From a virus (lineage: Duplodnaviria; Caudoviricetes), in IMG/VR virus record IMGVR_UViG_650627003_000001, positions 32,001-96,000 of that record: a stretch of DNA of 64,000 nucleotides; one strand, written 5' to 3'. Below are positions 1,632 to 40,365 of the stretch, piece by piece; position 1 is the stretch's first letter, and every line of letters begins with the position of its first letter. Position numbers and translations under genes: made by a program. The notes beneath the pieces were generated by a model, which worked only from the letters and a program-made list of their open reading frames with translations, searched no databases and was not told the DNA's origin.

Positions 1632-1671
1632 ATAATACTAAAAAAGGAAGCATTTGTAAACACTTCCTTTT
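1632..1671 (-). promoter_or_regulatory. composite terminator hairpin/early promoter (PeSL-like)
   Basis: AAAAGGAAGTG-TTTACAAA-TGCTTCCTTTTTT-AG-TATTAT; -35 box in hairpin loop. Confidence 0.8.
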
Positions 1672-1679
1672 AAATATTT

Positions 1680-2915
1680 TTACTTTTTATACGGCTTGAC
1701 AATTCCTTGCTCTAAAGCAAGTTTAAACTTCTCTACATAAGAACCATCATACATCTGTACTAATACATCGTAGTTCTGATATGCGTATTCTCGGAACCAT
1801 CCAGAAGTAATAGAAGTACACACCTTTTCTAAAGCAATCATAAACGACTGTTTAGGGTCGATCTCAAAGTTATTTGGAATCTGAGAACGTTCTAGAGCCA
1901 ACACATAACACTCTTCAAGAACTCCCATCATTTTTACTGCTCGAGGGCTATTTAAAAACTTCTCTCGAGAGCATTGTACTTCTGCTCCATCTTGCATGTA
2001 CATTGTGTACGCAGGTGTACTTAAATGTTTGACTGCTAAATGAATAGAATCATGGTCGTAGATGTAGTTTACGTTTGAGTTAAAGAACTCGTTAGATTTT
2101 ACACTTAGATTAGGATGACTATAATCGTAAGTTTCTTTCTCTCGAAGATCAAGCCAGTTTTCGTCTTTAATTGTACAACCACAGACTTTAGTCAAGAACT
2201 GAATATGACGCATTGTCTTTAAGAAATGTGGAGAATTCCGCAAGAATCGATGCGACCATTTCATTGTCAATACCATATCAAGATTCATGTATTTGTAATC
2301 GTCAACTTTGAGATGGTCCATATCAAATAACATTGCGCTTGAAGTGCCTTGTTTTTTAAGATATTGGATTTCGTAAATTTTGCTTGACACTGTGTTTTGG
2401 ATAACAATTACGCCAACATCAAATTTTGGAATATCAAATTCTTTGATTAAATCAAAACGTCCAATAGTTTCAAGCTTACGCAGATGCGCAACTAATGCAT
2501 CTGCATCTTGACGATCATAGCAAAGAATATCCACATCACTGGTTTTGAAGTTTTTAGGGAGTTTGTCACTATAGAACAAATGATACTGCATTGCAATAGA
2601 ACCCATTACGATAGGGGCACGCTTTACGCCTTCAATTGTAGTTTCTTCAACTTCTACTTCCTCAACAGGTTCTAGATTAAGTGAAGCTTGGAATACTTCA
2701 AATCCTGCATCGGTCAATTCAACAGTTTCCCCATTAGAAGCAACTAGACCAGCGTTAATCAACGAAGCAAAAACACCTTTATCTTCTGGAGTATTAACAA
2801 CAATGTTAATCCAAGTAAATGCGTCAAAGCGATCGTCCGGAATCCCGCCGTTAACACCGTTGAATTCAGAAGTAGCGATTGCGTGTAACATTTTAGTTTG
2901 TAATACTGTAGCCAT
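1680..2915 (-). CDS. nucleotidyltransferase-fold protein with N-terminal winged-helix-like domain
   Basis: IVMGSIAM..SDVDIL (GS/DxD) motif after acidic linker; C-terminal YDHDSIH, LEExYVLALER, ITSGWFREYA blocks; N-terminal SLINAGLV..VELTDAG wHTH-like. Confidence 0.6.
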   Translation of the reverse strand: MATVLQTKMLHAIATSEFNGVNGGIPDDRFDAFTWINIVVNTPEDKGVFASLINAGLVASNGETVELTDAGFEVFQASLNLEPVEEVEVEETTIEGVKRAPIVMGSIAMQYHLFYSDKLPKNFKTSDVDILCYDRQDADALVAHLRKLETIGRFDLIKEFDIPKFDVGVIVIQNTVSSKIYEIQYLKKQGTSSAMLFDMDHLKVDDYKYMNLDMVLTMKWSHRFLRNSPHFLKTMRHIQFLTKVCGCTIKDENWLDLREKETYDYSHPNLSVKSNEFFNSNVNYIYDHDSIHLAVKHLSTPAYTMYMQDGAEVQCSREKFLNSPRAVKMMGVLEECYVLALERSQIPNNFEIDPKQSFMIALEKVCTSITSGWFREYAYQNYDVLVQMYDGSYVEKFKLALEQGIVKPYKK

Positions 2916-2953
2916 GATGTGTTCCTCAAGTTGTAGTTTGTTTCAATAAGAGT

Positions 2954-2991
2954 ATAATACTAAAAAAGGAAGTGCTTGTAAACACTTCCTT
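2954..2991 (-). promoter_or_regulatory. composite terminator hairpin/early promoter (PeSL-like)
   Basis: AAGGAAGTG-TTTACAAG-CACTTCCTTTTTT-AG-TATTAT. Confidence 0.8.
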
Positions 2992-3008
2992 CTAAAATAA
3001 TTAAGTTT

Positions 3009-3245
3009 TTAACAGTTCATAGAGCTTGAAGTCCAAGGACGGAAACTTACATCAGCTTCTGAACCTTGATGATCGACATAACGATTAGAACACTGTGCCG
3101 TGCTTTCTGACCAATAAATTTGACCTTCGGCAAATTCAGGACTAATTCTAAAATTAGCAATTTGACCAATATTCACACGATGCTCGAGTTCTCGTACAGT
3201 TTCGTCCATGAGTTCAATTAATTCTAGATCAGTTAAAGATTTCAT
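3009..3245 (-). CDS. small protein with two W-x-x-S-[ST]-x-x-C motifs (start moved to MKSL)
   Basis: SD GGAGAA before ATG 3245; internal WSESTAQC and terminal WTSSSMNC. Confidence 0.75.
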   Translation of the reverse strand: MKSLTDLELIELMDETVRELEHRVNIGQIANFRISPEFAEGQIYWSESTAQCSNRYVDHQGSEADVSFRPWTSSSMNC

Positions 3246-3264
3246 AAGTTCTCCAAGTAAGTAA

Positions 3265-3696
3265 TTAGCAAGATTGGCTAGACGGTTCCCATACACCTTC
3301 AGTACCGTTGTAGGTACCACCCATACCGTATGCAGTGTCAAGATCAAAGCTAAGATTGTGTTTATCTGCAATAGCTGTTGCTTTGTCTAAGGCAACACTA
3401 AATTCTGCAACAGCAATATCAAGATCTTCCTGCATTTGCAGTTTAGTAAGAATAGCGATTGCACTTACTTCATCTAATTCCACAATAGGACCTTTAACGT
3501 ATTTGCGACCTGCAGAATAGTAATGAACATTTTCTTTATACGCAGCCAAATAAGCTTGACGAACTTCTTCAGTAAATTCTTGACCAAGTTCTACGCCTTT
3601 AGGGAATTTTGACCAACGAGATGCATTTTCGTGATAGGTCTTTGGGTCTACAAAACAATAGTTTTCGTATACATGTGCTAAATTGTACTTTGACAT
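3265..3696 (-). CDS. small protein ending YGMGGTY..WEPSSQSC
   Basis: 143 aa ORF with SD, behind early promoter. Confidence 0.8.
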   Translation of the reverse strand: MSKYNLAHVYENYCFVDPKTYHENASRWSKFPKGVELGQEFTEEVRQAYLAAYKENVHYYSAGRKYVKGPIVELDEVSAIAILTKLQMQEDLDIAVAEFSVALDKATAIADKHNLSFDLDTAYGMGGTYNGTEGVWEPSSQSC

Positions 3697-3771: not shown

Positions 3772-5220
3772 TTATGCAGTAATTCCATCAAAACCTTCTA
3801 GCTCTGCTGCTAATTGATCAAGTCTTGCTCTTGGCGGAAGCTTTTCTTGATTCAACGGGAGGTTCTCGTTTTTAGGTGTCGAACCAGATACGTCAGAGAA
3901 CTGTGCATTTTCGTCTAACTCAACCCATCGTTGATTGCCTTTCTTAACACCGATTAAGAACTTATTCCACAAATTCTTATCTCCATAACGAGACTTAATT
4001 TGTTTAACTAGTTGTCGACCTTGTTGCGCTAGTTCTTCAGTTTCTATCACCGCTAAAATAAAGTCTGCTGTTGCAGGCAGACCAGCGGATTCGGCAATAT
4101 CAGACATATTTAAATCCGAAGAATCCCAACCAGCACGAGTGGTCTGAGCTGCTGTCCATAAAACAGTTTGGGTTTCAAAAGCTAATGCGCGAAGTTCTTC
4201 TGCAATTGCCTTGACCAACGTATAACTATTTTCTGTATACACTTTAATACGAGCAGAAGCACAAATACCAAGATAATCAATAATGATTACATCTGGAACA
4301 AAACGCTTTTTAAGCTTTAACTCATTCACCAAAGAGCGGAATGTGTTTGCAGAAGCAGTACCATTACCATATTGCTTGATGATTAATCGACCAAGAGTTT
4401 TTTGTTCACGATACCGCTCCATCTTACCTTTATACTCGTGATAAGAAATATTCCCATCGTCAATATCGTCTAATGTGACATCAAGTAAATTAGCGTCAAT
4501 ACGTTTAGCACATACTTCCTCTGCCATCTCCATTGAAATATAGAGAACGTTTTTACCATCTAACAGATAATCAGCAGCTAATGAACAAAGTCCTAAAGAC
4601 TTACCTACGTTTACACCTGCGAGTAAAATATTGAGGGTTGCAATCTCAGCGCCGCCTTTAGTAATTTTGTTCAAAATGTTAAGACGGAATGGAACTTTAC
4701 GAGCTTTGTTTTTATAACTCAACCAACGCGATTCATAATCATCTAACCAGTCATGACCGACATAAGAATCAAACGAGATAGAAATTGCATCTCGCATAAT
4801 ATCTGGAATTGCACCTAAACCTGGAAGCTTTTTATTCTGTCGTTCTAAAGGCAATTCAGCGTTGGCACTAATTTCGAGAATTTTTGAAGTTGCGTTATAA
4901 ACTGCTGTATTTTGTACATACTTTTCTGTTTCTACAAGTAACCAATCATTGTTCTCTTTTTCAAGAGACAATTCGTTTAAAAGAGACTTTGCTCCATTAA
5001 GTTCGTTTTCTGTCATTGGAGTATTTTCAATGACCATGTTAATTGCGACTTTAGAAGGAACTGTATTATACGCGTCAACGTGGTTCTTAATAGTCTTAAA
5101 CAAAACAGTTGCAGGCCCAGAAGGGAAGTATTCCTCATCCATATACGGCCATACTTTAGAAAAATACTGTTCATTACATAAGAGCTGTGACAAAATTACA
5201 TCAATCATTTCTTTTTCCAA
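3772..5220 (-). CDS. 41: replicative DNA helicase gp41
   Basis: AGVNVGKS Walker A, SMEMAEE, IIIDYLGIC, QIKSRYGD; T4 synteny uvsX-40-41. Confidence 0.97.
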   Translation of the reverse strand: MEKEMIDVILSQLLCNEQYFSKVWPYMDEEYFPSGPATVLFKTIKNHVDAYNTVPSKVAINMVIENTPMTENELNGAKSLLNELSLEKENNDWLLVETEKYVQNTAVYNATSKILEISANAELPLERQNKKLPGLGAIPDIMRDAISISFDSYVGHDWLDDYESRWLSYKNKARKVPFRLNILNKITKGGAEIATLNILLAGVNVGKSLGLCSLAADYLLDGKNVLYISMEMAEEVCAKRIDANLLDVTLDDIDDGNISYHEYKGKMERYREQKTLGRLIIKQYGNGTASANTFRSLVNELKLKKRFVPDVIIIDYLGICASARIKVYTENSYTLVKAIAEELRALAFETQTVLWTAAQTTRAGWDSSDLNMSDIAESAGLPATADFILAVIETEELAQQGRQLVKQIKSRYGDKNLWNKFLIGVKKGNQRWVELDENAQFSDVSGSTPKNENLPLNQEKLPPRARLDQLAAELEGFDGITA

Positions 5221-5583: not shown

Positions 5584-6741
5584 TTATTCGAAGTTTTCTA
5601 ACTCATCTTCGACTTCTGCTGAACTTTGAGATTCACCAAACGAAATGCCTGCACCTGTATTATCAAGCTTACCGTTAATAATATCAGCGATTTCGTTTTC
5701 AACTTCAATGTTGTTTTCGATAGCAGAGAGTTTGTATCGTTTTTCAATAGCATCTCGGAATTCCTGCGACTTAAATAACGGTCCCCAGAATTCGGTGCAC
5801 TTAGTGTCTTTTGCACGCCATGATTTAGTCTCACGACGTTTTTCACCATCAATAGTCAGCTCACGAGCATACCAACCATTTTTAGGCTTAACAACCATAC
5901 CAAGTTCGAGTGCCATATCTAATAAACCAGAATACGGATCAATGCCACCTTCAAATGTTACATCAATAAAGAACTTAGATTTTTCTTTCACATAACGAGA
6001 TTTCTCTGCGTTTAATACGAATTGGAATCCTTCAAGCTCAGTACCATCTTTGATCTGACGCTTACCAATATAGAACACTGTGTCAGCTGCATACATTGGA
6101 CCGGTACCGCCAGTCATAACGGTTTTAGAGAACATTTCAATAGTTTCGATTGTATGGTTAATCGCGATACATGGAATGTTTTTTGTACTGAAGTATGGTG
6201 TCACAATACGGAATAATGACTTCATAGCTTTAGCACGTGTCATGTCTGCTGTAGTTTTTTCGTTTTCAGCATCTTCAATTTCTTTCTTAGATGCCATGTT
6301 ACCGATCGAGTCAATCAATACAATAACTTTTTCACCACGTTGAACTGCTTTCAATTGATTCGCCATATCAATTTTAATTTGCTCAACAGAGACAATTGGT
6401 GTATGAACTACACGGTCTGGATTGACACCCATAGCAGAAAGATATTCTGGTGTGATACCAAATTCAGAGTCGTAGAACAAACAAATTGCATCTTCATATT
6501 TTTTCATGAATGCAGAAACTACAGTAAGAGCCATATTTGATTTAAAGTGCTTCGAAGGTCCAGCAAAGATTGTCAGTCCGGACTTCATACCGCCGCCTAA
6601 TTCACCAGACAATGCAATATTAAGCATTGGGATTTTAGTACGGAGAATGTCTTTTTCATTGAACATTTTTGACTTAGACAAAATAGCTACATTTTCAGAA
6701 GTTGAAGCTTTGAGTAAACGAGAACGTAAATCAGATGACAT
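5584..6741 (-). CDS. uvsX: RecA-like recombinase UvsX
   Basis: AGPSKHFKS Walker A, FYDSEFG, DSIGNMASKKE, MTGGTG. Confidence 0.97.
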   Translation of the reverse strand: MSSDLRSRLLKASTSENVAILSKSKMFNEKDILRTKIPMLNIALSGELGGGMKSGLTIFAGPSKHFKSNMALTVVSAFMKKYEDAICLFYDSEFGITPEYLSAMGVNPDRVVHTPIVSVEQIKIDMANQLKAVQRGEKVIVLIDSIGNMASKKEIEDAENEKTTADMTRAKAMKSLFRIVTPYFSTKNIPCIAINHTIETIEMFSKTVMTGGTGPMYAADTVFYIGKRQIKDGTELEGFQFVLNAEKSRYVKEKSKFFIDVTFEGGIDPYSGLLDMALELGMVVKPKNGWYARELTIDGEKRRETKSWRAKDTKCTEFWGPLFKSQEFRDAIEKRYKLSAIENNIEVENEIADIINGKLDNTGAGISFGESQSSAEVEDELENFE

Positions 6742-28457: not shown

Positions 28458-28496
28458 ATAATACTAAAAAAGGAGAGCATTGTAAATACTCTCCTT
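28458..28496 (-). promoter_or_regulatory. composite terminator hairpin/early promoter (PeSL-like)
   Basis: AAGGAGAGTA-TTTACAA-TGCTCTCCTTTTTT-AG-TATTAT. Confidence 0.8.
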
Positions 28497-31052: not shown

Positions 31053-32009
31053 TCAGTATCGTGTTTTAATTTCTTCAATTGATTTTGTCGAAGTAACAAA
31101 GCTAAGCTTATCTGCACGAAGCTGTTGCAAGTCTTTACTAAGTTCAACAAGTTCTTTATTCAACTCTTCGATACGTTGAATAGTTGCAGACTCTTTACTA
31201 TCTATATTATCATACAAAGATTGTAAAGCTTGTGTCAAATCAACTTCTGCAATAGGTTTAGGCTCTTCGACTGCGAACTTATACTTTGTAAACACGTCTT
31301 CGAGTGGAGTAATAACCATTTCGATTATGGTACTTTTGCCAAAAGCTTTTTGCGATGGTTTATCGATTTCTTTAAACAATTTAGTTTGATTTAGGCCATG
31401 ATAAAATGCCCAACCAATTCTATTAGCTCGAGCTGTAACCTTCTTTTCATCTGATGTATACACATAAGAACAGCTTAAAACAAATTTTAACACGCCTTTA
31501 TCAAGAATAAACCCAAAGTGATAATTACCATCTGACGACAATACTCGAGTTTGACTGAATCCATGAGATCGTCGAATATATTGTGTCAACAAACATTCAC
31601 TTGTATATCGATGAATTAACGCAGTCAAAGGCTTTAAAGAATTGTTTAATTCTGTACACAACTCAAGAGTGCTTGTAATTCCTTCAAGGTTTCTACCTGC
31701 TACAGTTAGAACACCATCTTTAACTGTGCATCGTTTGAGTGAATTCTTTGCCAAGAAAACTGATGTTTCTGGGCGCTTCATGAGATATGTGACCACCATA
31801 CTAAAGTCTTTTTTAATTAATGCAGGATTTGCAGCAATAGCAAAAACTTCAGATGCAATTTTTTTAACGGTTACATCAGGAATCTCACCATAATGCTCAA
31901 TCTGATCGATATAAAAATTGACATATCGCTTTGCAGAATTGATATTATTTGGTCCAAGTGACGTGCTGGCTTTGTCCAATAGAATTTTTTCAAGAATTCG
32001 ACGGTTCAT
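31053..32009 (-). CDS. hypothetical protein with C-terminal coiled coil
   Basis: SD GGAG before ATG 32009; heptad-rich tail. Confidence 0.8.
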   Translation of the reverse strand: MNRRILEKILLDKASTSLGPNNINSAKRYVNFYIDQIEHYGEIPDVTVKKIASEVFAIAANPALIKKDFSMVVTYLMKRPETSVFLAKNSLKRCTVKDGVLTVAGRNLEGITSTLELCTELNNSLKPLTALIHRYTSECLLTQYIRRSHGFSQTRVLSSDGNYHFGFILDKGVLKFVLSCSYVYTSDEKKVTARANRIGWAFYHGLNQTKLFKEIDKPSQKAFGKSTIIEMVITPLEDVFTKYKFAVEEPKPIAEVDLTQALQSLYDNIDSKESATIQRIEELNKELVELSKDLQQLRADKLSFVTSTKSIEEIKTRY

Positions 32010-40326: not shown

Positions 40327-40365
40327 ATAATACTAAAAAAGGAGTGTCTTGTAAACACTCCTTTT
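40327..40365 (-). promoter_or_regulatory. composite terminator hairpin/early promoter (PeSL-like)
   Basis: AAAAGGAGTGT-TTACAAG-ACACTCCTTTTTT-AG-TATTAT. Confidence 0.8.

Follow-up and report, generated by a model that had tools for sequence, protein, structure and literature searches.

Genomic linkage between a family of phage nucleotidyltransferases and small acidic proteins sharing a C-terminal serine–cysteine tag

The 64-kb window analyzed here (the whole stretch of 64,000 nucleotides at positions 32,001 to 96,000 of the IMG/VR record IMGVR_UViG_650627003_000001, from a virus of the class Caudoviricetes) encodes on its minus strand 2 small proteins carrying a common short tag, followed by a putative nucleotidyltransferase (NTase), and homologues of the enzyme and of the tagged proteins are encoded side by side across diverse phages. 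The gene for the first tail protein, a 143-aa member of the phrog_899 family ending ...AYGMGGTYNGTEGVWEPSSQSC, is an open reading frame (ORF) at positions 3265-3696, with the tag WEPSSQSC at its C-terminus (3268-3291) and the stop codon immediately after it. The second tail protein (78 aa; 3009-3245, ATG at 3245 preceded seven bases 5' by GGAG, stop codon at 3009-3011) carries two tag copies located by motif scan, an internal WSESTAQC (3090-3113) and a C-terminal WTSSSMNC (3012-3035). The third gene, with GAGG ahead of its ATG, encodes the 411-aa NTase (1680-2915), which consists of a 100-aa N-terminal extension (residues 1-100; 2616-2915) delimited by homologue coverage, a pol-beta NTase lobe assigned to DUF7277 (residues 101-199; 2319-2615) containing G105-S106, D127-x-D129 and E182, and a helical lobe assigned to DUF7275 (residues 214-390; 1746-2276), the two lobes being defined by Pfam and alignment.

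The tag is rare in the window. Six-frame translation of the 64 kb yielded 4 matches to the pattern W..S[ST]..C, one of which runs across a stop codon, and the remaining 3 are the tags of the tail genes; the three copies that a first-pass annotation had reported in the two adjacent small genes were thus exactly placed and are the sole real six-frame matches. The window contains 1,270 stop-terminated ORFs with a length of 25 aa or more, and the 143-aa and 78-aa proteins are the only two products that end in a tail of the W-S-S-C type. The same annotation described the 2 genes as otherwise dissimilar, which holds for their pairwise comparison (BLASTP E = 21) but not at the profile level: the profile of the 143-aa family aligns to residues 30-78 of the 78-aa protein (13.4 bits; E 3.6e-6 in a single-sequence search), pairing FRISPEFAEGQIY of the former with FSLDPAYGMGGTY of the latter. 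Because of this alignment, the two proteins are probably old, distant paralogues.

To place the arrangement in a wider context, we analyzed the best 80 of 234 confirmed IMG/VR enzyme loci, with at most 6 kb of flank on each side, along with 17 loci of a distant enzyme clade (clade B, see below), 5 loci from a genome collection and a dozen GenBank stretches; the 64-kb window is the one sequence scanned for tails over its whole length. We counted as a strict tail any ORF of 25 aa or more that runs to a stop codon and has W..S[ST]..C as its final eight residues. Such an ORF was present in 67 of the 80 enzyme loci (137 of 20,328 ORFs), and all 137 lay on the enzyme strand, with none among the 11,780 ORFs of the other strand. 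Relative to the enzyme match, 134 were upstream and 3 downstream. The enzyme loci amount to roughly 1 million stretches of eight residues, in which the pattern turns up 144 times, and in 137 of these cases it coincides exactly with a C-terminus. The 13 loci without a strict tail comprise 7 with variant tails just upstream of the enzyme, each running into a stop codon (WQTSFC twice, WAGSSC, WQSSSC/WRSSTAICNGY, WSSSGMLC, WDSSTC and WDGSSC), 2 with less than 700 nt of upstream flank, 1 ambiguous case and 3 lacking a tail. With a looser, post hoc pattern (W.{1,3}[SA]S.{0,3}C$), 192 ORFs were recovered on the enzyme strand and 0 on the other, in 72 of the 80 loci and in up to 6 copies per locus. 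De-duplication of the 81 locus enzymes at 70% identity left 46 clusters, 36 of which are accompanied by strict and 41 by loose tails. Furthermore, all-against-all BLAST of the same-strand ORFs revealed only two families kept across loci, the enzyme (80/80) and the main tail cluster (61/80). A third family, found in 21 of the 80 loci (17 sequences), is itself a tail family with a double tag, an internal DW.SSCYGE and a terminal W.PSSC, and has the same internal-plus-terminal layout as the 78-aa protein of the window.

The linkage was also recovered from the side of the tail proteins. All five tail-side loci (two IMG/VR contigs, Myxococcus phage Mx1, Erwinia jumbo phage Kaldavass and Shigella phage phi25-307) carry the enzyme gene directly downstream. 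A scan of IMG/VR with back-translated AYGMGGTY, an octapeptide of the 143-aa protein, returned 38 stretches, 20 of which represent the tail family, and 16 of these 20 include the enzyme; the contigs overlap widely with those of the enzyme-side sample, making this reverse test only partly independent. For the remaining 4, the fetched DNA extends at most 1,107 nt downstream, and 3 of them lie on contigs known to carry the enzyme. The other 18 stretches (L119-L122, L128, L131-L133, L138, L139, L146-L152 and L154) encode an unrelated viral protein family that ends ...DDELFVIGRVVAIVRKV or similarly, with neither a Cys tail nor the enzyme nearby, so the AYGMGGTY 8-mer alone does not define the tail family. 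The linkage spans T4-like phages, jumbo contigs of 300-400 kb, 98-150-kb myoviruses, Myxococcus phage Mx1 and Ralstonia phage RSP15, which have almost no other neighbours of the enzyme in common.

Distant members of the DUF7275 family have other partners. The clade-B enzymes, from KVP40-like Vibrio phages, Vibrio phage R16F and Gordonia phage Smoothie, are without Cys-tailed neighbours, and in all 17 clade-B IMG/VR loci (L098-L114) the enzyme is accompanied by 1-4 same-strand copies of another small-protein family, also seen at L091:3441-3737, L092:4602-4967 and L090:4887-5357. This family has no Pfam assignment, the ESM Atlas neighbours of one member are unnamed viral clusters with no structure, and its core reads F-[KR]-x-x-G-[WY]-Y-x-S-[YH]-x-G with an invariant Ser; a Ser three residues past an aromatic residue is an invariant element common to the Cys-tail and clade-B partner families. 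In two cases, enzyme and partner are fused: as a single 387-aa ORF in contig locus L101 (3830-4990) and as a single annotated 383-aa coding sequence in Alteromonas phage vB_AmeM_PT11-V22 (L115:1498-2649), the 2 fusions being ~40% identical. In phages of Firmicutes, the gene just upstream of the enzyme in Brevibacillus phage Sundance (L089:3672-3953) encodes an acidic protein ending ...EEYSSSYYEEEEYSSSYYEED, in which EEYSSSYY is repeated and the last residues are EEYSSSYYEED, and the upstream neighbour of the enzyme in Bacillus phage G, gp204 (L116:2113-2466), is an acidic protein ending in EEEETSSSW. The C-termini of these Firmicute-clade partners are rich in Ser and aromatic residues and have no cysteine.

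In the window, the interval between the tail genes and the enzyme gene holds a terminator hairpin with an embedded early-promoter-like site (PeSL-type element; 2954-2991, minus strand), recognized from the sequence and matching a terminator/promoter hybrid previously raised as a caveat to the pairing; it consists of a 13-pair hairpin plus TTTACA-17-TATTAT at 2993-2954. A second copy with identical arms is found directly past the enzyme stop codon (1632-1669, minus strand; TTTACA-17-TATTAT with hairpin at 1671-1632), and because the two elements bracket the enzyme gene exactly, this gene constitutes a self-contained cassette. Altogether, hairpin terminators with an embedded TTTACA-17-TATTAT occur four times on the minus strand of the window (1632-1669, 2954-2991, 28458-28489 and 40327-40358), with none expected by chance. 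PeSL promoter-terminator cassettes are described from T4-type phages in the accessible text of two reports (PMC2839356, PMC4122927), and the window elements share with them a stem-loop terminator overlapping an early promoter and repetition around variable genes. Such bracketing would suit genes that are co-regulated but mechanistically independent, with a host factor (a protease, chaperone or defence sensor) reading the tag and the enzyme sharing only a mobile cassette with the tail genes. We consider this highly unlikely, given that the linkage persists across phages with so little else in common around the enzyme, that strand and order are strictly kept, and that the sister clades retain a partner and even fuse it to the enzyme. 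Since the linkage is specific in strand and order and is not accompanied by other shared neighbours, since partners recur in the sister clades and since one clade has fused the two components, it is very likely that the enzyme and the tail proteins are in direct functional partnership. The core proposal of the first-pass annotation, that the enzyme and the W-x-x-S-S-x-x-C proteins belong together, is borne out by this linkage, and the co-occurrence it predicted between enzyme homologues and motif-ended neighbours was found in both directions.

Among the 128 unique strict-tail proteins, the median length is 86.5 aa and the median isoelectric point (pI) 4.5, with 84% below pI 5; their C-terminal consensus is G-G-W-V-S-S-S-x-x-C. 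The tag also emerges from tail clusters defined by BLAST independently of the pattern: 140 of their 147 unique members have W within the last 12 residues, and among these 140, Ser occupies W+3 in 139 and W+4 in 118, and 134 end in Cys, whereas the 7 members without W look, from their sequences, like overlapping wrong-frame ORFs. The invariant positions of the tag draw on every one of the six Ser codons, on either Cys codon and on each of the three stop codons, so that the constraint lies at the protein level; an RNA-level explanation was rejected on this ground. Of the 2 window proteins, the 143-aa protein matches phrog_899 in PHROGs (E 4.3e-61), as do 30 of 30 aligned members of its family, and the 78-aa protein matches no PHROG. 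A profile of the YGMGG subfamily retrieved 913 representatives (at 50% identity) with E ≤ 0.001 among 1.84 billion proteins; the strict tag is terminal in 145 of the best 150 matches, and 4 of the other 5 have one residue beyond the Cys. A homologue search with the 143-aa protein by a word-index method gave two near-identical matches only, a consequence of the word index. In Pfam scans, neither the two window tail proteins nor the other partner proteins scanned matched any family above threshold, HEPN included, and no autoregulatory DNA-binding domain was found in the tail proteins. The AlphaFold2 model of the 143-aa protein, of moderate confidence (mean predicted local distance difference test score [pLDDT] of 67.5), has a helix at residues 76-112, a hairpin at 127-138 and low-confidence last residues, so that the order is long helix, AYGMGGTY, hairpin and the tail WEPSSQSC-COOH; the tag is predicted from this model to be a flexible tail after a helix-hairpin body. 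A Foldseek search with this moderate-confidence model against the PDB found nothing better than E 1.2.

These properties bear on an initial comparison of the tail proteins with precursors of ribosomally synthesized and post-translationally modified peptides (RiPPs). The comparison is apt insofar as a shared tag is encoded beside a putative modifying enzyme, and it falls short in that the tag is C-terminal on acidic proteins of 60-190 aa that are predicted to be folded, with a Ser-to-Cys spacing that varies from 0 to 3 residues even within single genomes. In its strong form, it would have the enzyme nucleotidylylate (NMPylate) a tag serine, which is converted to dehydroalanine and then attacked by the terminal Cys, yielding a lanthionine- or aminovinyl-cysteine-like C-terminal ring; the conversion of an NMPylated Ser to dehydroalanine followed by Cys addition is the chemical analogy on which this scheme is built. 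The commonest tag, Ser-Ser followed by Cys at i+3/i+4, the several "precursors" per enzyme and an invariant His/Asp/Glu cluster in the helical lobe that could hold a metal would all accommodate such a cross-link. The variable spacing and the size and predicted folding of the proteins do not, the sister-clade partners have serines and no cysteine, and the conserved neighbourhood of the 80 loci contains no dehydratase, cyclase, decarboxylase or other RiPP maturase family; a cross-link of this kind is accordingly very improbable. CaaX boxes and prochlorosin-type clusters are comparable by analogy only: there, too, a single enzyme serves multiple proteins, which have in common a short conserved terminal signal and a cysteine that is last or nearly so. 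They differ in enzyme fold and chemistry, and in the present loci no lipid or RiPP enzyme family lies nearby and the partners are folded acidic proteins.

In the Pfam scan, the enzyme scored 234.3 bits against DUF7275 and 32.7 bits against DUF7277, both above the gathering threshold (cut-off 27 each), the only other row being a sub-threshold UL11; in PHROGs, it matches phrog_2141 (E 4e-108). DUF7277, DUF7275 and phrog_2141 are all annotated as families without an assigned function. The motifs by which the gene had been recognized as an NTase with a motif-rich helical C-lobe are present as described, namely GS (105-106), DVD (127-129), SHRF, HDSIH, EECYVLALER and TSGWFR. Conservation was scored in a 44-sequence alignment and across 82 aligned enzymes. 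G105-S106 (the hG[GS] motif) is invariant in the former and present in 75 of the 82, the remaining 7 having gaps at truncated N-termini; the metal-binding pair D127 and D129, likewise invariant in the former, is found in 76 and 77 of the 82, respectively, the remainder again being gaps; and residue 182 is E in 70 and D in 4 of the 82. From its place on the modelled strand 180-186, E182 would be the third carboxylate. Invariant positions of the helical lobe are K219, H222, K233, R258, H288, D289, H292, E334, E335, E342, R343, S368, G372 and R375, and C366 is near-invariant (79 of 82). The highly conserved helical lobe could serve as a docking surface, which brings up the possibility that the tag, itself unmodified, docks exchangeable specificity subunits that steer the enzyme to host or phage targets. 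One tag on varied bodies, several paralogues per genome and the clade-B fusion would fit such adaptors. Yet an invariant Ser at a fixed distance from an aromatic residue in two non-homologous families is more typical of an acceptor site, and no neighbouring gene suggests a target, which makes the adaptor model rather improbable.

The enzyme family comprises at least 2,363 proteins (as protein clusters) at E ≤ 0.001 among 4,291 candidates, usually of about 300-330 aa, with matches in 728 of 50,697 GenBank phage records. The N-extension is missing from every homologue seen: homologues begin at approximately residue 95-101 and cover the protein to residue 411, and tblastn with residues 1-100 against the 50,697 phage records gave no match. 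Judging from its short helices ending in VELTDAGFEVF, the extension may resemble a small winged-helix-like domain. A megablast search of the locus region against the phage records likewise found no match. Outside phages, a scan of 185,579 prokaryote species (one genome each) recovered five loci, all on metagenome-assembled contigs, one of them 167 kb long; on this account the family looks essentially viral, although the scan was pattern-based, sees only relatives that keep the searched motifs and is weak evidence. No enzyme within a longer fusion protein (721-2055 aa) was found, in a search that is itself weak evidence. In BFVD, DUF7275 proteins of 508 and 571 aa are present in giant eukaryotic viruses (A0A3G5AJ90 of Sylvanvirus and A0A3G5AE53 of Satyrvirus), and the next structural neighbours in this search are the poly(A) polymerase catalytic subunits of nucleocytoplasmic large DNA viruses. 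NCBIfam contained nothing for the module proteins, and PADLOC gave a single chance-level Cas6d row (E 0.016).

The AlphaFold2 model of the enzyme, confident beyond the N-terminal 100 residues, has a mean pLDDT of 82.7, exceeding 90 over residues 100-260 and falling below 50 for residues 1-60. When it was compared with 48,161 PDB representatives using VIA-align, the eight best matches were all NTases with Z scores of 9.0-10.6, and the next row scored 6.7. They include TglT/MenT3 (10.6), MenT1 (10.6), MenT4 (9.5), LnuA (9.1) and ANT(2'') (9.0), the others being TM1012, JHP933 and a fungal NTase-like protein. Foldseek agrees (E about 2e-4, with low TM score), and the ESM Atlas neighbours are Aminoglyc_resit, which supplies the nearest named clusters, AbiEii, DUF6036, DUF2204 and Poly_A_pol_cat. 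In DUF1814 toxins, C-terminal motifs III and IV build the catalytic site together with the NTase motifs. The MenT matches reach approximately model residue 381, and the helical lobe of the phage enzyme opens with the invariant K219; the comparison is at the level of fold and not of individual residues (MenT3 K189/D211). Taken together, the sequence conservation and the model support the assignment of the enzyme as a pol-beta-fold NTase with intact catalytic motifs.

The best structural match across both lobes (Z 10.6, rmsd 3.2-4.0, 160-163 residues aligned) is provided by the MenT/AbiEii (DUF1814) NTase toxins, which are paired with MenA/AbiEi antitoxins and which resemble the phage module in having pol-beta catalytic motifs and a small protein gene directly upstream of the NTase gene. 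They differ in sequence, the phage enzyme having no Pfam AbiEii match at E ≤ 1 and its profile no match among PDB sequences at E ≤ 10, even though MenT structures lie in the PDB. Moreover, the phage enzyme has one to six partners instead of one, a much larger helical lobe with its own invariant motifs, and an almost phage-confined distribution by the weak measure of the pattern-based scan (five contigs in 185,579 species). To our knowledge, no MenA/AbiEi protein carries an invariant C-terminal tag of the W-S-S-C kind. The resemblance nonetheless raises the possibility of a toxin-antitoxin-like or regulatory pair, in which the enzyme would act on RNA or tRNA 3' ends and the small acidic proteins would plug its active site with their tails as pseudo-substrates, timing or restraining a possibly toxic activity in the course of infection. 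In favour of such a pair are the MenT toxins (Z 10.6, 10.6 and 9.5) and JHP933 among the best fold matches, AbiEii among the ESM Atlas neighbours, and the acidic tails, which are predicted to be flexible. The order of small protein gene and NTase gene is also that of MenAT1, in which, according to the accessible part of the report, the 68-aa MenA1 blocks the active sites (PMC10435456). Against it, as many as six paralogues with very different bodies per enzyme are unexpected for a simple inhibitor, the setting is that of lytic phages, no autoregulatory DNA-binding domain was detected in the small proteins, a Pfam AbiEii match is lacking, the enzyme has a near-neutral pI (median 6.3), and the clade-B enzyme-partner fusion suits a substrate or subunit better than an inhibitor. 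On balance, we regard this pair as unlikely.

MenT moves a nucleoside monophosphate (NMP) onto the 3'-OH of tRNA, as stated in the accessible text of the source (PMC10435456). LnuA and ANT(2'')-Ia, which have the NTase core in common with the phage enzyme (Z 9.1 and 9.0), transfer an NMP onto a hydroxyl of antibiotic substrates; they have no protein partner and no counterpart of the DUF7275 lobe, the aligned range being 92-264 only. The clearest precedent for an NTase that modifies an adjacent protein is HEPN/MNT, in which the acceptor is a tyrosine. The phage module would differ from it in having serine as the proposed acceptor and in its several partners per enzyme, lytic phage setting and partners that are not HEPN proteins by Pfam. 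In the part of the report available, the minimal pol-beta NTase of HepT-MntA (poly)adenylylates its neighbour protein on a side-chain hydroxyl (PMC7641770).

Our preferred but tentative reading is a phage accessory module in which the enzyme nucleotidylylates the tag serine of its small partner proteins. The module would consist of a pol-beta-fold NTase (DUF7277 plus DUF7275) and one to six small acidic proteins with variable bodies and a common C-terminal tag, G-W-x-x-S-S-x(0-3)-C-COOH. The conserved helical lobe would recognize the flexible tag, the NTase lobe would move a nucleotidyl group from a nucleoside triphosphate to the hydroxyl of the invariant Ser at W+3, and the terminal cysteine or carboxylate would act as an anchoring element; the small proteins would be substrates or carriers, probably early host-directed effectors in need of modification. 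Serine nucleotidylylation is favoured because NMP transfer to a hydroxyl is the reaction of all the closest structural relatives, because a serine in a fixed aromatic context is the sole feature common to all partner families and because HEPN/MNT shows that a minimal NTase can adenylylate a neighbouring protein. Direct binding, the serine acceptor, the nucleotide donor and the biological role of the module are what we infer. The first-pass annotation had listed NMPylation, protein priming, C-terminal activation and antitoxin-like inhibition as candidate roles. We further speculate that the terminal cysteine coordinates a metal together with the His/Asp/Glu cluster of the helical lobe, or that it takes part in recognition of the carboxylate.

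Several observations weigh against serine nucleotidylylation of the tag. Three of the 80 loci (L026, L077 and L081) have no tail of any kind and L067 is ambiguous, and the looser tail pattern was written once the data had been seen. The serine-acceptor model gives no reason for the cysteine to be strictly terminal. The Firmicute and clade-B partners have no cysteine, so that the tag chemistry may differ between clades, and the tail family has no detectable homology to the clade-B partner family (hhalign probability 1.4%), for which reason we do not claim kinship of the two. Finally, as far as the available text of the report goes, the nearest solved relatives, MenT and AbiEii, are tRNA-acting toxins with a small upstream controller, a gene order that fits equally well (PMC10435456). 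A broader version of the favoured reading, which we put forward as no better than a doubtful possibility, is a protein-tagging system in which the NTase writes a nucleotide or short chain onto the serine of the W-x-x-S-S-x-x-C box of fast-evolving acidic early proteins. Each genome would thereby be armed with a small set of protein-nucleotide conjugates, which might, for instance, act as decoys for host defences that sense nucleic acids or nucleotides, and analogous Ser-motif partners would serve in the sister clades (phages of Gram-positive hosts, KVP40-like, Gordonia and Alteromonas phages).

Two other phage NTases were considered as identities for the enzyme. RlaP is an RNA-ligase-associated pol-beta NTase common in jumbo phages, and its description, in the part accessible, includes no tagged small proteins (PMC7824862). 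It is, like the enzyme studied here, a phage-encoded pol-beta NTase, but this identity was set aside, as Pfam gives the enzyme only DUF7275, DUF7277 and the sub-threshold UL11, and RNA ligase is not a conserved neighbour. Gad2, a phage nucleotidyltransferase described in the accessible text as countering Gabija (PMC13728456), was considered from its description and set aside. In a tblastn search with the Brevibacillus homologue of the enzyme, Bacillus phage G was listed, and no SPbeta-like phage was among the best 40 of 732 rows.

Upstream of the tail genes, the window contains a helicase-like 482-aa ORF (3772-5220, minus strand) and, further upstream, a 385-aa ORF (5584-6741, minus strand), both taken from the ORF list and placed by synteny: in Acinetobacter phage Maestro, the counterparts of these ORFs, annotated as gp41 helicase, are followed by small genes and then by an enzyme homologue. 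Judged by this synteny and by the best tblastn hits, the window would belong to a T4-like phage of the Acinetobacter group. In Escherichia phage VR26 (Gaprivervirus), the module lies between homologues of T4 e.3 and e.2, a known variable region, and a gene annotated as a restriction endonuclease comes after the enzyme gene (L085:5693-6340). A macro-domain gene is found nearby in phage Mx1, and polynucleotide kinase and RNA ligase genes in Kaldavass; none of these is conserved across loci.

We found no paper on DUF7275, DUF7277, PF23940, PF23942, phrog_2141 or phrog_899, nor any on the pairing of a phage NTase with Cys-tailed proteins, in a literature search that lay outside subscription journals and supplements, the nearest topics being MenT, AbiE, HEPN/MNT, RlaP and Gad2; this agrees with the first-pass annotation, which knew of no characterized function for the pairing. 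Neither the enzyme fold nor the concept of pairing an NTase with a small protein encoded next to it is new, whereas there appears to be no description of the multi-copy family of tagged partners, of its near-obligate association with DUF7275 enzymes or of its spread throughout phages.

Few genomic signals of a functional system are stronger than a near-obligate pairing maintained across phages that have no other neighbours in common. Should the tails hold a MenT-like enzyme in check, the module would be a phage-borne relative of a toxin family known mainly from bacterial defence and persistence modules. If, instead, the enzyme modifies the tag, the module would add a new type to the post-translational modifications made by viruses, one whose recognition box is simple and can be transplanted, and it would provide a function for hundreds of "hypothetical" early genes of T4-like, jumbo and therapy phages.

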